64,000 nt of DNA from Comamonas serinivorans (GCF_002158865.1 NZ_CP021455.1:1096835-1160834), one strand, 5' to 3'. Shown: positions 3,801 through 43,599, counted from the stretch's first letter. The notes: a model not told the origin generated them from the sequence alone. A program made the numbers and translations.

Positions 3801-4061
3801 CAGCGAGCCACGCCTGGACAAGCGATTTTCGGGGCAGCCGTCGCGGCAGCGCAGAGCGATCTGTGCGTCACCGCGCGCTCCGTTCATGGCGTCTGGGCAT
3901 CGATGCAGCCGTTTCGCGTTACACGGGTGGTGTCGCGGGCTGTGTGCGCTGCATCGCGGTGCGGCCGCATAGACGCCGTTGGCGGGGTCTGCAGCCGCTC
4001 GGGTTGACCGGAGCCGCCGCCAGGGCCGGTTAGGATGCTGCGCTTTGCACGGACCCGAACC

Positions 4062-33276: not shown

Positions 33277-33306
33277 GACCCTTGATTCATCCGGCGCGTT
33301 CTTGAT
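33277..33306. promoter_or_regulatory. direct repeats CTTGATTCA x2 just upstream of rtcR ATG (candidate RtcR/UAS site)
   Basis: CTTGATTCA at 33277-85 and 33298-306; related CTTGATTTG at ~33193; TGAATC motif also upstream of the second sigma54 promoter. Confidence 0.3.
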
Positions 33307-33312
33307 TCAGCC

Positions 33313-34965
33313 ATGAAACCCATTCACGTCATCACCTTCCTGGGCACCCAGCTGGACAGCGGCAACGGTGCCGGCCGCTGGGAGAAGTGGCGGCCCACCG
33401 TGGCGCTGACCCAGCACGAGGACATGGAGGTCGCGCGGCTGGACCTGCTGCTGACCGGGCCCAGCCACCGGGCGCTGGCCGAGCGCGTGCGCGCCGACAT
33501 CGGCACGGTGTCGCCCGCCACCGAGGTCGTGCTGCACGAGTTGGCCGTGGACGATCCCTGGGACTTCGACGTCGTCTACACGCAGCTGTTCGATTGGGCC
33601 CGCGCGCAGGCCTTCGATACCGAGGCCGCGCAGTACTGGGCGCACATCACCACCGGCACGCATGTGGCGCAGATCTGCCTGTTCCTGCTGACCGAGTCGC
33701 GCGTGCTGCCCGGGGTGCTGTGCCAGACCTCGCCGCCCAAGCGGCAGCGCGAGGGCGCGGCCGGTGCCTACACGCTGATCGACCTCGACCTCTCGCGCTA
33801 CGACGCCATCGCCCAGCGCCATGCGGCCGACCAGCGCGATGCAGTGGCCTTCCTGAAAAGCGGCATCGCCACGCGCAATGCGCGCTTCAACGCGCTCATC
33901 GACGAGGTCGAGCGCGTGGCCGTGCGCTCCACCGCGCCGGTGCTGTTCGTGGGGCCCACGGGCGCGGGCAAGTCCTTCCTGGCCCGGCGCATGCACGAGC
34001 TGAAGAAATCGCGCCACCAGATCAACGGCGCCTTCGTCGAAGTCAACTGCGCCACGCTGCGTGGCGACGGCGCGGCCTCGACGCTGTTCGGCCACAAGCG
34101 CGGTGCTTTCACCGGCGCCGCCACCGACCGGCCCGGCCTGCTGCGCGCCGCCGATGGTGGGCTGCTGTTCCTCGACGAAATCGGCGAGCTGGGGGCCGAC
34201 GAGCAGGCCATGCTGCTCATGGCCATCGAAGACAAGCGCTTCTACCCCCTGGGTTCGGACCGCGAGGTGACCAGCGACTTTCAGCTGGTGGCGGGCACCA
34301 ACCGCGACCTGCGCGCCGAGGTCGCCGCGGGGCGGTTTCGCGAAGACCTGTTCTCGCGCATCAACCTGTGGACCTACGAGCTGCCTGGCCTGGCGGGCCG
34401 GCCTGAGGACATCGAACCCAACGTCGACTACCTGCTCACCCGCCATGCGCAAGCCTCGCGCCGCGCGGCCCGCTTCAACGTCGAAGCGCGCCGCGCCTAC
34501 CTGCGCTTTGCGCAAAGCGGCGAAGCGCTGTGGCGCGGCAATTTCCGCGACCTGTATGCCAGCGTGACGCGCCTGGCGACCCTGGCCGAGGGCGGGCGCA
34601 TCACCGAGCCGCTGGTGGTGGCTGAGATCAAACGGCTGCGCTGGATGTGGACGCGCGACAGCGCGGTGGCGGCGCCCGGCGCGCGCGCCTCGGGGGGCTC
34701 GCCGGGGGCGATGGCGGTCGATGCGGCGAGCGTGGACCTGGCCGACTTCTACGACGAAGCGGCCCTGGAGCAGATCGACCTGTTCGACCGCGTGCAGCTG
34801 CAGGGCGTCATCGCGGTGTGCCAGCGCTCGCGCACGCTGTCGGACGCGGGGCGCCAGCTGTACCAGGCCTCGCGGGCGCAACGCGCGGCGTTGAACGATT
34901 CGGACCGCCTGCGCAAGTACCTGGCCAAGTTCAACCTGAGCTGGGACCGCGTCAGCACACGATGA
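33313..34965 (+). CDS. rtcR: RtcR, sigma54-dependent transcriptional activator with N-terminal CARF domain
   Basis: MKPIHVITFLGTQLD..RWEKWRPTV (CARF); AAA+ core VLFVGPTGAGKS..GAFTGA..GLLFLDEIGEL. Confidence 0.85.
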   Translation: MKPIHVITFLGTQLDSGNGAGRWEKWRPTVALTQHEDMEVARLDLLLTGPSHRALAERVRADIGTVSPATEVVLHELAVDDPWDFDVVYTQLFDWARAQAFDTEAAQYWAHITTGTHVAQICLFLLTESRVLPGVLCQTSPPKRQREGAAGAYTLIDLDLSRYDAIAQRHAADQRDAVAFLKSGIATRNARFNALIDEVERVAVRSTAPVLFVGPTGAGKSFLARRMHELKKSRHQINGAFVEVNCATLRGDGAASTLFGHKRGAFTGAATDRPGLLRAADGGLLFLDEIGELGADEQAMLLMAIEDKRFYPLGSDREVTSDFQLVAGTNRDLRAEVAAGRFREDLFSRINLWTYELPGLAGRPEDIEPNVDYLLTRHAQASRRAARFNVEARRAYLRFAQSGEALWRGNFRDLYASVTRLATLAEGGRITEPLVVAEIKRLRWMWTRDSAVAAPGARASGGSPGAMAVDAASVDLADFYDEAALEQIDLFDRVQLQGVIAVCQRSRTLSDAGRQLYQASRAQRAALNDSDRLRKYLAKFNLSWDRVSTR

Positions 34966-34966
34966 T

Positions 34967-35019
34967 GGGGTATGGTGTGAATGCCGTTTTCCATGAAACG
35001 GAAATGGCCTGATACTGCC
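34967..35019. repeat. R1 repeat unit immediately after rtcR stop
   Basis: GGGGTATGGTGTGAA TGCCGTTTTccatgAAACGGaAATGG CCTGATACTGCC. Confidence 0.7.
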
Positions 35020-35133
35020 AAGGCTAAGCATTCCACAATGGGATGATCAACAGCGCGCCCGCCGGCTTGCACGGTGGGGCGCATGCAGCGGCTGGCCCAA
35101 GGCCGGGTGCACGACATGGAGAGGGAGACGCAC

Positions 35134-35802
35134 ATGGCGCAGTACATCGAGGTCATTGGACAGGCCAGCGTGAGCGAAGTGGCCGTGGAGCAGCGCGTGG
35201 CGCTGACGGTGTCGCACCGCGGCAAGGGCGGTGGCATGTCGGACAAGGTGGTGGCGCACAAGGCCACGCAGCAGCGTGAGCGGGTGATCGCCACGCTGCT
35301 GGCCCACGGCATGCGGGAGCACGAATTGCATGAGGGCGGCATGGACAGCGGCACCTGGCACTTCAAGCGCAAGCGCGAGGTGCACCACAGCCACCGCATC
35401 CTGCTGATCTGCGAGGACGACGCGCGCCTGTTTGCGGCCCTCGAGGCCCTGGCGCCGCTGCAGGACGAGGGCGAGCTTGACTTGCAACTGGACATGCTGG
35501 ACGCCCGCTACGAGGTGCCGGCCGGTGCGCTGAGCGGGGCGCAGCAGGCGGCGGTGGCGCATGCCCGTGAGCATGCGAATGGCCTGGCGCAGGCTGCCGG
35601 CGTGGCGCTGGGCGCGGTGGTGCAGGTGCAAGAGCTGGCGCCGGCGCGGGAGCGTTCGGGTGCCTATGGCGAGTCCTGGTATGGCTTGGCCGCCGCAGGC
35701 GGCGCGGCTGCGGCACCGGCCATGACCCTCTTGGCGAGTAACCAGCGCACGCGCACCTTGAGCTACCGCGTGCGCTTTGCGCTGCAGCGGGCTGTGCCCT
35801 GA
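35134..35802 (+). CDS. SIMPL/DUF541-like protein without signal peptide
   Basis: YIEVIGQASVSEVAVEQRVALTV ... ARYEVPAGALSGAQQAAVAHAREHANGLAQAAGVALGAVVQVQE; RBS GGAGAGGGAG. Confidence 0.5.
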   Translation: MAQYIEVIGQASVSEVAVEQRVALTVSHRGKGGGMSDKVVAHKATQQRERVIATLLAHGMREHELHEGGMDSGTWHFKRKREVHHSHRILLICEDDARLFAALEALAPLQDEGELDLQLDMLDARYEVPAGALSGAQQAAVAHAREHANGLAQAAGVALGAVVQVQELAPARERSGAYGESWYGLAAAGGAAAAPAMTLLASNQRTRTLSYRVRFALQRAVP

Positions 35803-35882
35803 CGCGCGTCGTTCGCCGCAACGCCTGGGCCGCGGTGGCCTGAATGTCGGTCCGACCGTGCACTGGGCAGGACGTGGGGCCA

Positions 35883-35915
35883 GTGAATCGCCTGCAACGC
35901 CCCTGCAGACGATTC
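35883..35915. promoter_or_regulatory. inverted repeat TGAATCG-N19-CGATTCA, candidate enhancer (UAS) ~125 bp upstream of the sigma54 promoter
   Basis: 7-bp perfect arms; shares the TGAATC core with the CTTGATTCA repeats upstream of rtcR. Confidence 0.3.
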
Positions 35916-36024
35916 ATGGGCGGGCGTAGAGTTCGCATCGAAAGCGATACAGTGGGATCGTGTTCGGCGGTCATGGTGGCGTGCAGCCCTGCTGTCGCCC
36001 TGGGGTGAAGCGGGATGGGCCGAA

Positions 36025-36041
36025 CTGGCACGGCCGTTGCG
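36025..36041 (+). promoter_or_regulatory. sigma54 (RpoN) promoter, near-consensus
   Basis: CTGGCACGGCCGTTGCG = YTGGCACGr-N3-TTGC with exact -24/-12 spacing; ~15 nt upstream of the tRNA-like element. Confidence 0.6.
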
Positions 36042-36055
36042 AAGGATGAGGTGAA

Positions 36056-36149
36056 CGTGGGCCCAGGTCTGGGGTGGCGCAAAGCGAGCGCGTCGGACTT
36101 GAATCCGAAGGGTGCTGGTGCAAGTCCAGCCCCCAGACCTGGGCCCGCG
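36056..36149 (+). ncRNA. tRNA-like cloverleaf closed by 16-19 bp perfect helix (Y-RNA/YrlA-like candidate ncRNA)
   Basis: GGGCCCAGGTCTGGGG(36059-74)/CCCCAGACCTGGGCCC(36131-46); inner arms GCGC-AAAGCGA-GCGC, CGGA-CTTGAAT-TCCG, GCTGG-TGCAAGT-CCAGC with 2-nt and 5-6-nt linkers as in tRNA. Confidence 0.5.
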
Positions 36150-36422
36150 AAACCCGGGGGCGCGACGGCGCGAGGCAGGCCTTGACGCGGCGGCCGTGTC
36201 GGCAAGGGTGCAGCGAGAAGCGGCTACCAGGCCGGTTGCCACGCATCGCAGCCCGTCGGCCAGCCCGACCGGCAGGGGATGAGGTCAGGTGTGCAACGGT
36301 CTGGCGCAGTTCAAGGAGAACGCCCGACCATGCATCGGGAAGGTGCTGGACAAGCCAGCCGCCAGACCGTTGCGCATGGGCCAGTCCCCGTCCCGATCCA
36401 CACGAACACAGGGAGAGCGGCC

Positions 36423-39320
36423 ATGGGCCAGCACGACGAAGAGCACTCACCGGACGCCGGTGAGCACCCGGTGCCGCCGGCGCATGCGGCATCCGGGCTT
36501 GCCCAGGCGAACCCGGGCTGGGCAGCCGGCCAGCTTGCACGCGCCCGTGCGGCTTTGGCACAGGCACAGGTACAGCGGGACCCGTCAGGGCCCGACGCGG
36601 CCGGCGCTGCGTCATCCGCGGATACCGACGCTGCAGGCCACGCCGTGGCGCGTGCGCTGGCCAAGGTGAATGCCTGGCGCCAGGCCTTGGCCGGCATGGC
36701 CAGTGGCGAGCTGCAGGTGGGGTCGCGCACGCCGCTGCGCAACGTGGCGGCCTGGCTCACGCCGAATGTGTTGCACGGCGGATTCGCCTCGGGCCAGCTG
36801 ATGGCCGGGGGGCGCGCGCAAGCACACGAGACGCACTGGCTGGCGCAACTGGCGGCCGGTCAGCCGCTGGGCAGCACGCCGACCGACTGTGCCCGGATGG
36901 CCACGCTGGCGGCACAGCCCGTGGACCGCAGCACGCTGCCCCAGAAGCTGGACCGCACGCCGCTGAACGACTGGTTCCTGACCGAGGCGGGCCTGCAGCA
37001 GCTGATGCAGTGGCTGGACGACGGCCGCTGGCGCATCGCCGTGCCCGAGGAGGGCGCCTTGCTGGTGGTGGCCTGGCTGCTGAGGCAGGGGCATGACACC
37101 TCGGCGGCCCGCCTGTTGGACACCCTGTCGCCCTACTGGCACCGCGTTCGCTTTTACCCGCAGCCCGCTGCGACGCCCATGCCGGCGCTCGACCGCGTGA
37201 GCCTGCGCAGCGCGCAGGACGTGATGGCGCAGTTGAACCAGCTGCAGACGCCGCCCGCGGTGCTGGCCCAGCACCAAGCCATCCACGTGTGGCGCCCCTT
37301 GCTCGACGAGCTGGTGCTGCTGTGGCTGCAGGCCGTGCCCGGCGCGCTGCACGGCCCTGACGCTGCCGCGGCCCATGGCGAATCCGGGCGAGGTGCCGAC
37401 GGCGCCGTGACGGATGCGCTGCCGCGCCTGCGTGCCGGCACGCGCGAGGCCGAAGGCGGCTTGCCCCTGGCCGAGCCCGACGCCGACTGGCGGCAGCAGG
37501 CGGCGGCCTGGCGCCTGCGGGCGCGCGAGGCCGAGGCGCAGCACACGCGCAGCCGGGCGCACCGCAAGCCCGGCTCGCACGTGGCGCAGTTGTGGGCCAT
37601 GCTGGACCAGGTGCTGCAAGGTCAGGCCCTGAGCGAGGCACAGCGCCGCCGGCTGCGCTTTGTGCTGGCGTGCCAGGTCAGCGCCCATGGCGTGCCAGGC
37701 GATGCGAGGCACCACACCTGGCGCGCCGCGCAACGGGCGCAGACCGACACCGTGTGGCGCGCCCACTGGGCGTACGCACTGGCCGCGCGCGTGCAGGCGC
37801 AGGGCCCCTACGCGCTGGGCGATGGCCTGCCGGATCTGGACACCGCGCTGCAAGCTGCCACGGCGCAAGAGGCACAACAACATGCGCACCTGCCCGAAGG
37901 CACCGTGGTCTGGCCCAGCCTGCGCCGCAAGCTGCGCCGCGCCCACTTGGCCACCGTGCCGCAGCTGGTGCAAGCCGGCATCGTGCCGTCGAGCGAGGTG
38001 CTGGCCAGCGTGCTGCCCGGCACCACGGGCGCACAGCTGGCGCGCACCATGCCCGATGCGGCCAGCGCGCGGCTGCTGGGCGCGCTGTGGCGTGCGTTTC
38101 GCGGGCGACGCTCGGTGCTGCTGCTGAACCACGAGTCGCAGGTGCGCTTTCACGAGCTGCCCTGGGTGCTGCGCTTGCAGCAGCACGCCTGCGTGCCGGC
38201 GACGGCCGCCGGGACCGAGGGCGATTCGGCACATCGCTGGGACATGGCCGGCCTGGCGCGCAGCCAGGCGTTGGCGCAGCTGGATGCGGCCGCGCGCCTG
38301 GCGCTGACGCAATTCCCGCAATCGGCCTTCCCGAACCCGCTGCTGTGGGAGCTTCGCGCGCTGGCCGAGCAGGGTGGCTGGCAGCCGCCGTGGGTCGAAG
38401 ACATCGCGGCCGACATCTTCATGGGCAGCTTTGGGCCCAAGTTCGGGCAGGCCGTGCACGACGCGCTGCCCTGGTTGCAGGGCAGCCTGTATGCGCAGCA
38501 TTTCCAGCTCGACCTGGAGGCGCTGCGCCTGGCCATGGCGCCGGCCGTGGCCTGCCACGCGGCCTTTCAGCGTTACGCCGAAACGCCAGCGGGCTCACCC
38601 GGCAACCCCGCGGCCAAGCGCGAACAACAGGCCTTGCTGCAGCGCTATCACGCGGCGCCCGACCTGCTGGTGGCGCACCTGCGTGCGCGCACGGGCTGGT
38701 CGGCCGACGCCCGCGGCGTGGGCGCGAATGGCGCCGTCATCGAGCAGATGGGCCTGGTCAGCACGGCCAACTTCGCGCCGCTGGCGCAGCGCTTTGGCTG
38801 GGGCGTGGCCGGTGCCGGTTTGCGCGATGCCACGGCCCAGGCGCGCGAGCTCCAGGGGTGGGCGCAGGCCGCACGCACGGGCTTCGAGCGGCTGTGCGCG
38901 GGGCTGGACCTGGGCGTGCGCGAAGCCGGCGCCATGCTGGACAAGCCGCCAACCCAGATCCAGGCGACAAACCCGGCGGATGCCCATGCGGCAGCGACAG
39001 AAGCCCAGGCCGCCGACCGCCTGCTGGCCGAGCGCGTGCGCCGGGCCGCCACCAGCTGGCGCCAGGTCGTGCTGCTGCTGAGCCTGCTGCCCGCCGAGCA
39101 GCAGCGCGCCAACCTGCTGGGCATGCAGCGCCACCTCGCGGCCTGTGACACCCCCGCCAGCCGGGGCGTGACGCGCGCCCTGGCGCCCCAGCTGGCCGAC
39201 CTGATGGCCTGTGTGCAAGGCCAGGCGCGCGACGCCGGTCGGCCACCGTTCCACGGCTGGACCCAGCCAGGGCAGCGGGGCGTGCTGTTCACCCTGCGCC
39301 AGGGCCTGAAGGCCGGGTGA
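36423..39320 (+). CDS. large hypothetical protein (~965 aa), Ala/Leu-rich, no recognised domain; sits where RtcB is normally found
   Basis: 3-kb ORF on the operon strand with high GC3; SD GGGAGAG 5 nt before ATG 36423 (alternative ATGs at 36330 and 36279 have low-GC3 codons). Confidence 0.55.
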   Translation: MGQHDEEHSPDAGEHPVPPAHAASGLAQANPGWAAGQLARARAALAQAQVQRDPSGPDAAGAASSADTDAAGHAVARALAKVNAWRQALAGMASGELQVGSRTPLRNVAAWLTPNVLHGGFASGQLMAGGRAQAHETHWLAQLAAGQPLGSTPTDCARMATLAAQPVDRSTLPQKLDRTPLNDWFLTEAGLQQLMQWLDDGRWRIAVPEEGALLVVAWLLRQGHDTSAARLLDTLSPYWHRVRFYPQPAATPMPALDRVSLRSAQDVMAQLNQLQTPPAVLAQHQAIHVWRPLLDELVLLWLQAVPGALHGPDAAAAHGESGRGADGAVTDALPRLRAGTREAEGGLPLAEPDADWRQQAAAWRLRAREAEAQHTRSRAHRKPGSHVAQLWAMLDQVLQGQALSEAQRRRLRFVLACQVSAHGVPGDARHHTWRAAQRAQTDTVWRAHWAYALAARVQAQGPYALGDGLPDLDTALQAATAQEAQQHAHLPEGTVVWPSLRRKLRRAHLATVPQLVQAGIVPSSEVLASVLPGTTGAQLARTMPDAASARLLGALWRAFRGRRSVLLLNHESQVRFHELPWVLRLQQHACVPATAAGTEGDSAHRWDMAGLARSQALAQLDAAARLALTQFPQSAFPNPLLWELRALAEQGGWQPPWVEDIAADIFMGSFGPKFGQAVHDALPWLQGSLYAQHFQLDLEALRLAMAPAVACHAAFQRYAETPAGSPGNPAAKREQQALLQRYHAAPDLLVAHLRARTGWSADARGVGANGAVIEQMGLVSTANFAPLAQRFGWGVAGAGLRDATAQARELQGWAQAARTGFERLCAGLDLGVREAGAMLDKPPTQIQATNPADAHAAATEAQAADRLLAERVRRAATSWRQVVLLLSLLPAEQQRANLLGMQRHLAACDTPASRGVTRALAPQLADLMACVQGQARDAGRPPFHGWTQPGQRGVLFTLRQGLKAG

Positions 39321-39710
39321 GCAGGTCGGGTGAGGTCAGGTGAAGCCAGCGGGGCCATGGGGCCCCATCTTCCAGGTTGGCCCGAATGGTGACCGTGGGT
39401 CTGGGTGCCGGTGCTGCCGCCCCAGGCGTTCGCTGTGGGCGCCTGGCGGACTGGCGCCGAGGAACGGAGGAGCTTGCGCGACAATCCGGCATCCGGTCCG
39501 GGCGAGGCTCGCTAGGACATGGCCATGGCGCGCGGCGGTCAGCACGCGGCGGTGTCGGCCCCGCAGCCGCGCGATCCCGGTGGTCGGGTGCAAGTGCCCT
39601 GTCGGCTTGCGTTCCACGCCAACAGGCCTGCTGCCGTGCCTCGTGCCATGTCAACCGTTGCTTGACGGTCGGCGGGCCCCGTGCCCACGCCGTGTTGTTC
39701 AGAAGTACCC

Positions 39711-40454
39711 ATGCCTTTACGCATCGACGAAGCCATCACCCAGCTGGATCACGGCTGGCTCAGCCATTTGAAATCGCAGGGTTACGGCGGCGATGCCTTG
39801 CGCCAGGCGATCGACCTGGTGCTGTACGCCCAACAGCAGGCGGCGGCGCGCAACAGCGCCGAGTTCAAGGCCGCCATCGCGCGCGTCAACCACCTGGTGG
39901 GGGCGGGCATCGCGTGTGACAACAACGGCGACTACCTGTACACGGCCGAGTGGCGCGACCCGGCTTGCGCCGGGCTGGGCTTCGCCATCGAATACGCGGC
40001 CGACCCGGCCAGCTGGCGGGCCGAGTTCCGCATGCCCGGCTGCTGGCCGCACACCGTGGACAACCTCGACATCACCGACACCCGCGCTGTGGACCACGAC
40101 TTTGCGCTCTGGCTGGCGCGCGCCAGTGCCCGCCATTTCACGCACCTGATCGAACGCCAGCTGCCCGAAGGCGAAGCACTGCGCGCGCCCTGTACGGCGG
40201 CCGTGCGGGCCGGCACCTGGGCCGAATTCGTGTGCCTGCACCCACTGCAACCCGTGGCCCGCCTGGGGCACGAGCGGCTGGAGCAGGCCGCCTGGTCGGC
40301 CCAATACCCCAGTGCCGCCCAGCGCGAGTTGCAGGCCCGCTTCGATGTGCAGAGCGCCTTGCTGCTGCGCTTGATCGTGGTTCAGCAGGCAGCATGGGCT
40401 TGGCATGAAGAGTATGGCGACAATCGCGATGACGATTCAACGGGAAGGCATTGA
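39711..40454 (+). CDS. hypothetical protein (~247 aa); last ~16 codons and the stop are encoded by an R1 repeat
   Basis: ORF with typical codon usage until ~40405, then runs into repeat GAAGAGTATGGCGAC... Confidence 0.45.
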   Translation: MPLRIDEAITQLDHGWLSHLKSQGYGGDALRQAIDLVLYAQQQAAARNSAEFKAAIARVNHLVGAGIACDNNGDYLYTAEWRDPACAGLGFAIEYAADPASWRAEFRMPGCWPHTVDNLDITDTRAVDHDFALWLARASARHFTHLIERQLPEGEALRAPCTAAVRAGTWAEFVCLHPLQPVARLGHERLEQAAWSAQYPSAAQRELQARFDVQSALLLRLIVVQQAAWAWHEEYGDNRDDDSTGRH

Positions 40455-40460
40455 TACTCC
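40407..40460. repeat. R1 repeat unit (variant inner)
   Basis: GAAGAGTATGGCGACA ATCGCGATGACGATTCAACGGGAAGGCATT GATACTCC. Confidence 0.55.
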
Positions 40461-40987
40461 ATTTGATGTGGCGCTTGCTGAGGGCTGCTTGCCCGACACC
40501 GGAAGGCTGGCGTCGACGCAGGGACATGACGCGTGGCCAGCGGTGCATGGGCTCGCCAGCCGCCCGCACAGCGCCCCCAACCCGCTGACTGGGCGTCCTG
40601 ATGCAGCAGGCCTGGCTCGACCTGCCCGTGCTCTTTCGCCTGCATGCGCAGGCGCGTGGCCAACAGGTGGCGCAGCCCGAGCGGGCCGATGGGGTGTTCG
40701 CCATCCAGGGCACGGCCAGCGCGCAGCCTCACACCGTCCGAGACGGACCGCATCCGGGCCGATTGCCTGTGAAGGCGGGCTTGCAAGGGGCGCTGCATGG
40801 ATCGCTGGCGCGCTGGATGAATCAAGCCAGTTTGGCTTGCGGTGGCTGAGCCGTGGCGAGGCGCAGGCGCCCTCGACGCCAAGTGCTTGATCCGGCAAGG
40901 GTTTGCGCGGCTCGCCTGTTGATTTGGCGGGGCCTGGCACGCCGCGTGCAACGAGGATGGCCACACACAACTCAACTGGGAGCACAC

Positions 40988-42193
40988 ATGCCAACCGACG
41001 ACCAGGTGGAGGCGAAGCCGCGTCACCGTGACCCAGCTCGCACGGCCACCGCCGCAGACACCAAAAGCGTGACCGGCGCAGCGCAGACGGGCCGTGGCGC
41101 AGCCATCGAGATCGATGGCTCGCAGGGCGAGGGCGGCGGGCAGATCCTGCGCACGGCGCTGGCCTTGTCCATGATCACCGGCCAGCCGCTGCACCTGCGC
41201 GCCATCCGCGCCAAGCGGCCCAAGCCCGGGCTCATGCGCCAGCACCTGATGTGCGTGCAGGCGGCCGCGCAGGTCAGCGGGGCCCACATCAGCGGGGCCG
41301 AGCTGGGGGCCACCGAGTTGCGCTTCGCGCCGGGCCCGGTGCGGGCGAGCGCCTACGAATTTGCCATGGCCAGCGCAGGCAGCTGCATGCTGGTGCTGCA
41401 GACCGTGCTGCCGGCGTTGATGCTGGCCGATGCCCCCAGCACGCTGGTGCTGCGGGGCGGCACGCACAACCCCATGGCGCCCAGCTTCCACTTTGTGCGC
41501 GATGCCTTTGCGCCGCTGGTGCAGCGCCTGGGCGCCGGCCTGACGCTGCAGCTGCAGCGGCTGGGCTTTTACCCCGCAGGCGGTGGCGAGGTCACGGCCA
41601 CCATCACGCCTGCGGCCCGCCTGACCCCGTTCGACCTGACCGAGCGTGGCGAGCTGCAGCAGGGCGATGCTCTGTGCCTGACGCCGGGGCTGTCGGGGTC
41701 GATCGCGCGCCGCGAGCTGACGGCGCTGGGCCAGGCCATGGGCTGGGGCGAGGACCGCTTGCGCTTTGGCGAGGCCAGGCAGCACGAGGGGCCGGGCAAT
41801 GCCTTGATCGCCCGCCTGCGCTACGCCCACGTGACCGAGGTGTTCGTCGAGCTTGGGGCCCGCAACCTGTCGTCGGAGCAGGTGGCCGGCAAGCTGGTGC
41901 AGGCCATCCGGGCGTTTCAACGCCGGCCAGGTGCCGCGGTGGGCCCACACTTGGCCGACCAGCTGGTGCTGCTGCAGGCCCTGGCCGTGTGGCAGGCCGG
42001 ACGGACCGGCAGCCAGGCGGATGCGCCCCACGCCGATGTGCCCCAGGCGGATGTGCCGCAAGCACGCTTCTCGTGCAGCGAGGTGACCGAGCACTTGCGC
42101 ACCAACTGCGTGGTGATCGAACGCTTTCTGCCCGTGCGCTGCACGCTGACCCAGGGCCCTGTGTCCCGGGTGACGGTGCGCTGGGCGGGGTGA
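40988..42193 (+). CDS. rtcA: RNA 3'-terminal phosphate cyclase
   Basis: IEIDGSQGEGGGQILRTALALSMITGQPLHLRAIRAKRPKPGL matches RtcA N-terminal signature; ~40-aa N-extension if ATG 40988 (SD GGGAG) is used. Confidence 0.85.
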   Translation: MPTDDQVEAKPRHRDPARTATAADTKSVTGAAQTGRGAAIEIDGSQGEGGGQILRTALALSMITGQPLHLRAIRAKRPKPGLMRQHLMCVQAAAQVSGAHISGAELGATELRFAPGPVRASAYEFAMASAGSCMLVLQTVLPALMLADAPSTLVLRGGTHNPMAPSFHFVRDAFAPLVQRLGAGLTLQLQRLGFYPAGGGEVTATITPAARLTPFDLTERGELQQGDALCLTPGLSGSIARRELTALGQAMGWGEDRLRFGEARQHEGPGNALIARLRYAHVTEVFVELGARNLSSEQVAGKLVQAIRAFQRRPGAAVGPHLADQLVLLQALAVWQAGRTGSQADAPHADVPQADVPQARFSCSEVTEHLRTNCVVIERFLPVRCTLTQGPVSRVTVRWAG

Positions 42194-42365
42194 GTCCCGC
42201 GCGCCAGTCGGGGCACTGAGGCGGGCTGGCGGGGCCCCTGGCCTCGCCGGCCGGGCCCATGCCATCCCGCGCAAGGCCCGCCGGCGCCGAGGTGCCCGGC
42301 GCCGCGCAACGGACGATGCGCGGAGCTAGGGCCGGGGTGAGCGGGATGGGCGACAATCGCGCGCC

Positions 42366-43250
42366 ATGACTGCAGCCAACCCCTCTGCGGATTCGACCGT
42401 GAATTCCAACGCCTACATCCTGACCCTGTCTTGCCCCGACCGCACGGGCATCGTCCATGCCGTTTCGGGCTTTCTGCTGGAGCAGGGCGGCAACATCGAA
42501 GAAGCCGCGCAATTCAACGACCCGGGCACCGGCCTGTTCTTCATGCGCGTGCGTTTTGCCAGTGCCAGCGCGGACTACGAGGCCCTGCGCGCCAAGCTGA
42601 CCGACTTCGCCAAGCCGCTGGACATGAAGCTGCGCCTGTATTCGACCAGCGAGCCCATGCGCACGGTGATCTTCGTCAGCAAGGAAGGCCACTGCCTCAA
42701 CGACCTGCTGTTCCGCTGGAAGTCGGGCCTGCTGCCCATCGACATCCGCGCCATCGTCAGCAACCACCGCGACTTCTACCAGCTGGCCGCGAGCTACAAC
42801 ATCCCGTTCCACCACCTGCCCATGACCCGGGACAACAAGGCCGAGGTCGAGGCCAAGCAGTTCGAGATCATCAAGCAGGAAAGCGCCGACCTGGTGGTGC
42901 TGGCGCGCTACATGCAGATCCTGTCGGATGACCTGTGCCGCAAGCTGGCGGGGCGGGCCATCAACATCCACCACAGCTTCCTGCCCAGCTTCAAGGGCGC
43001 ACGCCCCTACTACCAGGCGCACGAGCGCGGGGTGAAGCTCATCGGCGCCACGGCGCACTACGTGACGGCCGACCTCGACGAGGGGCCCATCATCGAGCAG
43101 GACGTGGCGCGCGTGGACCACTCGCGCACCGTGGAAGACCTGACCGCCATCGGCCGCGACACCGAGAGCCAGGTGCTGGCCCGCGCCGTGAAGTGGCACA
43201 GCGAGCACCGCGTGCTGCTCAATGGCCACAAGACCGTGGTGTTCCGCTGA
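42366..43250 (+). CDS. purU: formyltetrahydrofolate deformylase
   Basis: N-terminal ACT domain + formyltransferase core (ARYMQILS..INIHHSFLPSFKGA). Confidence 0.9.
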   Translation: MTAANPSADSTVNSNAYILTLSCPDRTGIVHAVSGFLLEQGGNIEEAAQFNDPGTGLFFMRVRFASASADYEALRAKLTDFAKPLDMKLRLYSTSEPMRTVIFVSKEGHCLNDLLFRWKSGLLPIDIRAIVSNHRDFYQLAASYNIPFHHLPMTRDNKAEVEAKQFEIIKQESADLVVLARYMQILSDDLCRKLAGRAINIHHSFLPSFKGARPYYQAHERGVKLIGATAHYVTADLDEGPIIEQDVARVDHSRTVEDLTAIGRDTESQVLARAVKWHSEHRVLLNGHKTVVFR

Positions 43251-43388
43251 GCGCCTGAACGGGCGTCGTTCGCGGGTTTTGGGGAGTGCGCCGGCACGCC
43301 GGATGCCGGGTGCTCAACGGGGCCTGCATCGCACGCCGCAGCGCCAGCGGTGCGTGTCGTGTCTGGACGAGGTTGATGGGTGTGTGAC

Positions 43389-43440
43389 GGGGTATTGGGT
43401 CAGCCCCGTTCATATATCAACGGCGAGTAAGCCATACCCC
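43389..43440. repeat. R1 repeat unit
   Basis: GGGGTATTGGGTCAG CCCCGTTcatatatcAACGGcgagtaa GCCATACCCC. Confidence 0.65.
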
Positions 43441-43599
43441 TGATTGATTCGGGTGTGGCATTCACGCCATCCAGCGCCGAGGATGAGGCGCTCAAGAGGA
43501 GCACCACCACTGACGCCTGGCCACCCGCGCATCCCGCATGGCGGCGCGTGCAATCGGCCACGCGGCCACGCCGTCGACCTGCCGCGTTGGGCACGCGAC

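Follow-up and report, generated by a model that had tools for sequence, protein, structure and literature searches.

A tRNA-like RNA with a lengthened acceptor helix upstream of an all-alpha protein gene in an rtc locus of Comamonas serinivorans

A stretch of 64,000 nucleotides (nt) of Comamonas serinivorans (GCF_002158865.1, NZ_CP021455.1:1096835-1160834), here called the window at its full length, contains a locus in which two genes of the rtc RNA-repair system lie together with two elements resembling transfer RNAs (tRNAs) and the gene of a large helical protein. The genes from rtcR through rtcA are all on the + strand, as are the RNA elements and promoter motifs. At the 5' side lies rtcR (33313-34965), which encodes a sigma-54 enhancer-binding activator with the RtcR/CARF N-terminal domain (Pfam RtcR, 6.3e-76; Sigma54_activat, 5.5e-49); an RtcR gene is likewise directly upstream in the related locus L002. 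A sigma-54 type promoter (36026-36040; pattern match TGGCAC-N5-TTGC) precedes the main subject of this report, element 1 (36056-36149), a tRNA-like cloverleaf with an acceptor stem lengthened to 19 bp. A paralogous cloverleaf, element 2 (36290-36376), follows, and then the partner gene (36423-39320; CCO03_04750, which is annotated as shorter), encoding a 965-aa all-alpha protein and preceded by the Shine-Dalgarno-like GGGAGAG (36409-36415). Further downstream is rtcA (40985-42193), the gene of the RNA 3'-terminal phosphate cyclase (Pfam RTC, 4.6e-74). Element 1 is the first visible member of a large, apparently undescribed family of paired RNAs and proteins.

The promoter lies ~15 nt before the helix that closes element 1. 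Its core, TGGCACGGC-N3-TGC, is invariant in the window and in the related loci L001, L002 and L087, with gapless spacing to the helix and diverged flanking sequence. Judging from the usual -12 spacing, transcription would be expected to start at ~36052, 3-5 nt before the helix. Neither a sigma-70 promoter nor a convincing terminator was found around elements 1 and 2.

Inverted-repeat analysis of element 1 shows that 36056-36074 pairs with 36131-36149 over 19 bp including one G-U, and the 16-nt perfect core of this helix occurs at only these two sites in the 64-kb window. The 106-nt stretch containing the element folds at -68.7 kcal/mol, as against -42.1 +/- 3.7 for shuffled sequences (z = -7.1), and not one of 200 shuffles folds as well. 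The 56-nt interior and the inner 7 bp of the long helix constitute a cloverleaf, which is aligned end to end by the Rfam tRNA model RF00005 (36068-36138; 52.8 bits, E 1.7e-8; gathering score 29 bits) in the normal arm order of acceptor, D, anticodon, variable region, T and acceptor; when Rfam 15 was searched over 33000-43500, even at E <= 10, this was the sole family matched. ARAGORN likewise calls the element, as 'tRNA-???' with a 2-base anticodon, which implies the 6-nt loop CUUGAA. Since the single-sequence minimum free energy (MFE) structure of the + strand has the long helix but another fold inside it, the cloverleaf is deduced from the covariance-model match together with the covariation in its family described below. 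The D arm (GCGC/AAAGCGA/GCGC) has a loop without G18G19, and the T arm (GCUGG/UGCAAGU/CCAGC) has G55 while U54, C56 and A58 are retained. There is no free 7-bp acceptor end, the 12 nt past position 72 being paired with the 5' leader. Element 1 is thus devoid of a 7-nt anticodon loop, of a free acceptor, discriminator and CCA end, and of the full set of elbow nucleotides of a canonical tRNA. The initial annotation had described a perfect 16-bp pairing extendable to 19 bp with a G-U pair, closing a tRNA-like cloverleaf that is not a working tRNA on account of G55, the noncanonical D-loop and the missing 7-bp acceptor; all of these descriptions are borne out, the ends of the molecule being locked in the helix.

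Element 2, which had been overlooked in that annotation, has its core at 36300-36368 and a closing helix of 17-18 bp formed by the arms 36290-36306 and 36360-36376 (inverted repeat I3). It displays a 7-nt loop, CCAUGCA, with C at position 33, and a 5-nt T-loop, and was picked up by neither Rfam nor ARAGORN. Its MFE structure is a clean cloverleaf of -58.3 kcal/mol (z = -5.2); the 140-nt spacer between the two elements is not unusual in structure (z = +0.85). The elements are alike in their acceptor sequence, UCUGG(G/C)G, and in variable region and T stem (direct repeats D1/D3), and in both of them U1 faces A72 and C73 is paired. Both also occur in L001, L002/L003 and L087; the pairs of element 2 in L001, L002 and L087 are 97.7 % paired, as opposed to 30-39 % in slid controls, with fewer changes than in element 1. 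A spurious N-terminal extension of a 1013-aa open reading frame (ORF) call overlaps element 2.

We searched for further members of the family in 85 sources, comprising 80 reference-genome loci and metagenomic ones, using ARAGORN and then a covariance model, R1, built from 34 diverse sequences. In this training set the cloverleaf is 99.6 % paired, with compensatory change in 17 of 21 pairs. R1 detected 97 elements in 75 of the 85 sources, each of which immediately precedes the gene of a homolog of the 965-aa protein in the same orientation; 55 loci have one copy, 19 have two and one has four. True tRNAs of the same loci score 25-58 bits with R1, as against 63-93 bits for most members of the family. 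Element 1 reaches 76.3 bits, well above the true tRNAs, and element 2 reaches 53.1 bits (E 2e-10); because this latter value lies inside the range of true tRNAs, the membership of element 2 leans also on its position and paralogy. The acceptor stem has the normal 7 bp in most members, and in 16 of the 97 the gene itself supplies CCA behind the discriminator. Actinobacterial members are typified by C1-G72, the discriminator G73 and the T-loop GGCGGAA, without U54/U55. In 53 of 53 loci of the actinobacterial type (L008-L086, at about 3960-4060) the ATG of the long ORF (~790 aa) lies 2-4 nt past the acceptor 3' end, from which it follows that the RNA and the mRNA belong to one transcript; the mRNA would be nearly leaderless if processing of the 3' end occurs as in tRNAs.

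Clustering of neighbouring ORFs did not uncover a third conserved gene, and Pfam searches on 30 flanking ORFs returned largely unrelated functions. Genes of RNA repair nevertheless recur around the module, as with RtcR and RtcA in the window, and some individual neighbourhoods are worth recording. In Yinghuangia aomiensis (L035, 3641-3973) four tandem tRNA-like copies with differing loop triplets stand before the homolog, and in a metagenome-assembled genome of Pirellulaceae (L026, 2154-3704) an RtcB gene in the same orientation immediately precedes two tRNA-like genes and the homolog. In Massilia (L004/L082) the module is followed by genes for an RNA ligase (PF09414) and an HD + AAA_33 (P-loop) kinase, and preceded by an EF-G paralogue with extra EFG_IV fragments; these flanks resemble a healing-and-sealing cassette for RNA repair that may be connected with translation. 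Searches with the protein by tblastn gave no match in phages and, among plasmids, matches only to seven actinobacterial megaplasmids, and so the module is not obviously mobile or phage-borne.

The long helix of element 1 is conserved in four related sequences, which represent three independent lineages (the window, L002/L003 and L001/L087). All 19 pairs are kept, with 97.4 % of the cells paired as compared to 22-51 % when the arms are slid against each other, and 8 of the 12 pairs beyond the acceptor stem have changed on both sides. Seven cells of the helix extension and 14 of the family cloverleaf are G-U pairs; on the other strand such cells would read as A-C mismatches, which indicates an RNA read from the + strand. 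Pairing beyond the 7-bp acceptor reaches 8-12 bp in the window and in L001 and L002 alone, the other 92 of the 97 members having 0-2 bp. Hence, as far as can be judged from this alignment, the long helix is under selection, and only in the Comamonas/RtcR clade.

The family shows a peculiar distribution of sequence variation in its anticodon loop. Among 95 unique sequences C32 is present in all and U33 in 93, and entropy is near its maximum at positions 34-37. The pairwise difference at positions 34-36 is 0.66 in members of the actinobacterial type (n = 67) and 0.68 in the others (n = 32), compared with 0.10 and 0.27, respectively, for the rest of the RNA, and tandem copies within one locus differ chiefly in the loop. 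Of 99 elements, 84 have a loop of 7 nt, 11 one of 6 nt and four one of 5 nt. Positions 34-36 diverge 1.3-2.2 times faster than the four-fold sites of the adjacent ORF in every divergence bin, a calibration that is only indicative as the bias of G+C content at third codon positions (GC3) lowers the calibrator and the pairs are non-independent. The commonest triplet of the actinobacterial members is CGG (Pro), and triplets such as ACU, AGG and UCA are found on near-identical bodies. That dozens of triplets are accommodated in this manner speaks against decoding as the role of the RNA.

The product of the downstream ORF is 100 % identical to C. serinivorans CCO03_04750, and the GC3 frame plot backs the frame 36423-39320. 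A profile search of 1.84 billion representatives recovered 1,855 clusters (50 % identity) at E <= 1e-3 and 1,021 when the cutoff was tightened to E <= 1e-30; almost all homologs are 720-840 aa long and match as a single stretch. The AF2 model of the 965-aa protein is confident (pLDDT 84.8, pTM 0.82) and almost wholly helical. The protein has no match in Pfam, NCBIfam or PADLOC, and neither Foldseek against the PDB (best E 0.13) nor a sequence profile search of the PDB nor BFVD revealed a relative of its fold. An alignment of homologs at ~35 % identity contains eight invariant arginines and several invariant acidic residues, which are compatible with nucleic-acid binding or catalysis and prove neither. 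Two candidate affinities were considered and rejected: a remote homology to TROVE/Ro60, as Ro60 structures are absent among the fold hits, and HEPN or HD nuclease motifs, none of which occur among the invariant residues.

A DUF541/SIMPL gene (35074-35802) between rtcR and the sigma-54 promoter is missing at the equivalent position of L002. Downstream of the partner gene there is a 257-aa ORF (39681-40454) that is conserved in this clade, with GC3 supporting coding; it has 68 % identity to a 327-aa gene of L002 and no match in Pfam, NCBIfam, PADLOC or the PDB. At 40619-40772, tblastn and locus maps reveal the C-terminal remnant of a 726-aa gene, which is intact in L002 between the 327-aa gene and rtcA and is present too in L001 and L087; these comparisons suggest that C. 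serinivorans has lost it. Another motif of the sigma-54 type, TGGCACGCCGCGTGC (TGGCAC-N6-TGC; 40935-40949), is found ~35-36 nt before the likely rtcA start codon. As its counterpart in L002 (12366-12380) also precedes rtcA by 35 nt, rtcA probably has an RtcR-dependent promoter of its own rather than being just the final gene of a single operon. RtcA itself belongs to the NCBIfam equivalog NF003246 (372.7 bits, over the cutoff), with M45 (40985) as its likely start, and no rtcB was seen in this locus. Elsewhere, the window has a match to the S-adenosylhomocysteine (SAH) riboswitch RF01057 with a long insertion (27729-27850, + strand, 48 bits), ahead of a long ORF, and one to the Burkholderia small RNA Bcj11 (RF02835; 5794-5915, - strand, 69 bits), which may fall in coding sequence.

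We favor, at a probability of about 0.55, the reading that element 1, along with element 2, is a dedicated tRNA-mimic non-coding RNA derived from the 5' leader of the partner gene, and the RNA partner or ligand of the all-alpha protein. Under this proposal the module would be an ancient self-contained pair present in many phyla, with one to four tandem tRNA-like genes followed by the protein gene, in which the protein recognizes the conserved tRNA body while the tip of the anticodon loop can change freely. In the clade of the Comamonas type this module lies behind the RtcR/sigma-54 promoter and next to rtcA. The activator RtcR responds to 5' tRNA halves with a terminal 2',3'-cyclic phosphate, and RtcA is required for its activation (PMC7790460); from the promoter and the adjacency of rtcA it would follow that the module is switched on when broken tRNAs accumulate. 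Breakage of tRNAs would thus activate the promoter at 36026, and the nascent leader would fold as two tRNA-shaped modules with acceptor ends sealed by the lengthened helices. In this clade alone, the 5' leader and 3' trailer have evolved pairing of 18-19 bp that begins ~4 nt from the predicted start. Such a helix is predicted to enclose the RNase P site as well as the discriminator and CCA positions, thereby blocking RNase P cleavage, CCA addition and charging and yielding a closed, non-chargeable tRNA look-alike with a Y-RNA-like architecture; it would also stabilize the 5' end and probably offer a site for double-strand cleavage, by which the RNA is released from the mRNA. The co-translated 965-aa protein would then bind both modules, and the complex could act on, or compete with, tRNA-shaped molecules in the damage response. 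The most likely role of the RNA is accordingly phrased as that of a tRNA-shaped decoy or gate for its partner protein in the response to tRNA damage. A bolder version, to which we give only tentative weight, would make this locus one clade of a widespread, hitherto unrecognized ribonucleoprotein (RNP) system in which mimics with an anticodon triplet under diversifying selection, together with a novel-fold protein of ~800 aa, serve in surveillance or as decoys against anticodon nucleases or other tRNA damage, each genome presenting its own 'bait' loop, and which has been wired to RtcR in Comamonadaceae. A related idea exists for YrlA, the authors of the RtcR study having suggested that its tRNA-like domain might competitively inhibit the anticodon nuclease.

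Several points weigh against the ligand proposal. As the 965-aa protein has neither a recognizable RNA-binding domain nor a fold relative, it is gene linkage that suggests its binding of RNA, and 10 of the 85 loci have no such RNA even with the search filters off. The long-helix clade is known from three independent lineages only, and two metagenome scans for further members of it found none. Placement in the 5' untranslated region (UTR) would fit a purely cis-acting role equally well, and the presence of a Ro60 gene in L002 makes Rsr binding possible in this clade. Finally, what the analysis establishes is the RNA structure with its covariation, the linkage of the genes, the promoter motif and the gene content of the locus, whereas transcription, processing, protein binding and the decoy or gate role are steps that we infer.

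Of the other explanations, the one suggested by the initial annotation is that of a genuine bacterial Y RNA, with a terminal helix that binds Ro60/Rsr and a tRNA-like module that tethers an effector, as in rsr-yrlBA-rtcBA operons. The rtc setting guessed there is corroborated by RtcR, the sigma-54 promoter and RtcA, and the tRNA-like, non-coding character of the RNA and its sealed ends also stand; membership in the YrlA or bacterial Y-RNA family does not find support, and the covariance models, which matched tRNA, gave no Y-RNA family at E <= 10. Element 1 does share with YrlA a place in an RtcR-controlled repair locus, the mimicry of tRNA, a long stem joining the 5' and 3' ends without a free CCA, and an adjacent second RNA, reminiscent of the yrlB-yrlA tandem. 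However, YrlA is circularly permuted, with the T arm, a closed acceptor-like stem and the D arm in this order and the terminal stem in the anticodon position, and it has the motif GNCGAAN0-1G, a proposed Rsr-binding site, in the 5' strand of the terminal stem, its gene being located beside rsr (PMC4201824). In element 1 the D, anticodon, variable and T arms follow in normal order and the terminal stem extends the acceptor, and the motif occurs neither in the 5' strand of the helix (CGUGGGCCCAGGUCUGGGG) nor in its flanks. Closer is Yrn1 of Deinococcus radiodurans, whose terminal stem stands where the acceptor would be and which also has a T arm and a 5-bp 'anticodon' stem capped by a 6-nt loop, in the arm order seen here; that RNA has only partial D-loop features, no variable arm and a bulged Ro-binding helix of the metazoan type, and lies upstream of rsr (PMC4201824). 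Element 1, by contrast, forms the full cloverleaf (52.8 bits with the tRNA model) and has a perfect, unbulged helix. Its 5' strand has GGUCUGG, in which 5/7 bases agree with the metazoan GGUCCGA, a similarity that speaks to some degree for a Y RNA but stems from the acceptor sequence UCUGGGG, itself conserved. The L002 locus does carry a Ro60 gene (TROVE + vWA_Ro60; 351-1919, - strand) 3.8 kb upstream of its elements, on the strand opposite to them and parted from rtcR by a gene for a glutamate symporter, an unrelated transporter. Among the loci with neighbours examined Ro60 was seen only at L002/L003, and tblastn with the L002 Ro60 protein found no TROVE gene in the 64-kb window. Because the RNA family is linked to a different protein (75 of 85 loci) and most of its copies do not have the long helix, we regard its assignment to the Y RNAs as improbable. 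The initial annotation had also named a miniature inverted-repeat transposable element (MITE) as an alternative, and one might more broadly think of a chance palindrome, a decayed tRNA pseudogene or a protein-binding site at the DNA level, given that the element is intergenic and that tRNA-derived repeats and integration scars are common. Chance is hard to reconcile with a z of -7.1 against shuffles; position, structure and compensatory changes are conserved in the related loci, and the G-U pairs make sense only as a + strand RNA. A MITE or integration scar was rejected, being contradicted by the covariation and by the uniqueness of the arm in the window, where the sole related sequence is the tandem paralogue. 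Explanations of this kind are very improbable.

Two further possibilities accept the conserved RNA structure and differ in what it is for. The RNA could be a cis-acting leader only, a signal for processing, stability or autoregulation (RNase P/Z 'punctuation' or an operator), with any released RNA being functionless. This would agree with the invariable location of the element in the 5' UTR on the strand of the gene, with the distance of 2-4 nt to the ATG in the 53 actinobacterial loci, where 3' processing would leave a near-leaderless mRNA, and with the helix of the window, which begins 3-5 nt past the predicted start in the manner of a protective stem-loop at the 5' end; an unconstrained anticodon, too, suits an RNA that does not decode. 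Yet the tRNA body and its non-canonical but conserved D and T loops have been kept across phyla beyond the needs of RNase P/Z, C32 and U33 are invariant or virtually so, 20 loci have 2-4 tandem copies, and in the clade of the window the helix buries the very sites of RNase P and RNase Z, so that we hold a purely cis-acting function to be rather unlikely. The opposite view, that of a working, chargeable tRNA, either a nuclease-resistant spare decoder or an aminoacyl carrier for the partner comparable to the tRNAProX family of Streptomyces, could draw on the 7-nt loops with C32 and U33 in most members (84/99), on the usual 7-bp acceptor and the encoded CCA of some copies, and on the precedent for swapped anticodons on one tRNA body (PMC10404621). 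It is at odds with element 1 itself, where the loop has 6 nt, G55 is present, G18G19 is missing and positions 73-84 are paired, with loops of 5-6 nt in 15 of the 99 elements, with the actinobacterial T-loop, with the discriminator G in place of the A73 of tRNAProX, and with the many triplets, including ACU, AGG and UCA, on near-identical bodies; a chargeable tRNA is therefore decidedly improbable.

Y RNAs in RNA-repair operons are already known, and the present finding points to a second and much larger class, whose ~1,855 protein clusters extend over Actinobacteria, Proteobacteria, Planctomycetota, Verrucomicrobiota, Acidobacteriota, Chloroflexota and Cyanobacteria. Its evolutionary signature is unusual in combining a frozen body with a free-running anticodon, and here the module has a direct regulatory tie to RtcR, which to our knowledge is the only known sensor of broken tRNAs. 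The pair of RNA and protein is concrete and testable. Should a complex form, it would be a new bacterial RNP and would provide the rtc field with a new effector in genomes that have rtcR and rtcA at the locus without rtcB; it would also account for many odd 'tRNA' annotations in which the anticodon is random, in Streptomyces and elsewhere. In the full-text literature we found no description of the RNA-protein pair, though the 2016 survey of RNA repair by Burroughs and Aravind may mention it.

Beyond the Y RNAs, three known systems invite comparison. In type III toxin-antitoxin systems of the ToxIN type, the antitoxins are short pseudoknot repeats and the toxins small endoribonucleases of ~170 aa. 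The likeness would be one of layout only, in that tandem structured RNAs stand upstream of a partner gene in what appears to be one transcript, and PADLOC gave no match here. In the thrU-tyrU-glyT-thrT-tufB operon of Escherichia coli, ordinary, essential tRNAs are co-transcribed with EF-Tu. That arrangement may offer an analogy, with tRNA-shaped RNAs placed, on one transcript, ahead of a protein that would handle tRNA-shaped molecules; it differs in that the RNAs described here are non-canonical and the protein is uncharacterized. The tRNAProX of Streptomyces and Kitasatospora has A73 and G72, is charged by prolyl-tRNA synthetase (ProRS), decodes on the ribosome and has the gene of the isoform ProRSx adjacent to it (PMC10404621). 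As in our family, a conserved tRNA body with differing anticodons stands beside a dedicated protein gene, and the actinobacterial members resemble it in C1-G72 and in having CGG as the commonest triplet. In contrast, the RNAs of our family have a G discriminator, a non-canonical T-loop, some loops of 5-6 nt and an all-alpha neighbour that is not a ProRS, and the copies in the window are sealed. The tRNAProX/ProRSx pair is thus the nearest precedent for one RNA body that bears many anticodons, and it differs from the family described here in its defining features.

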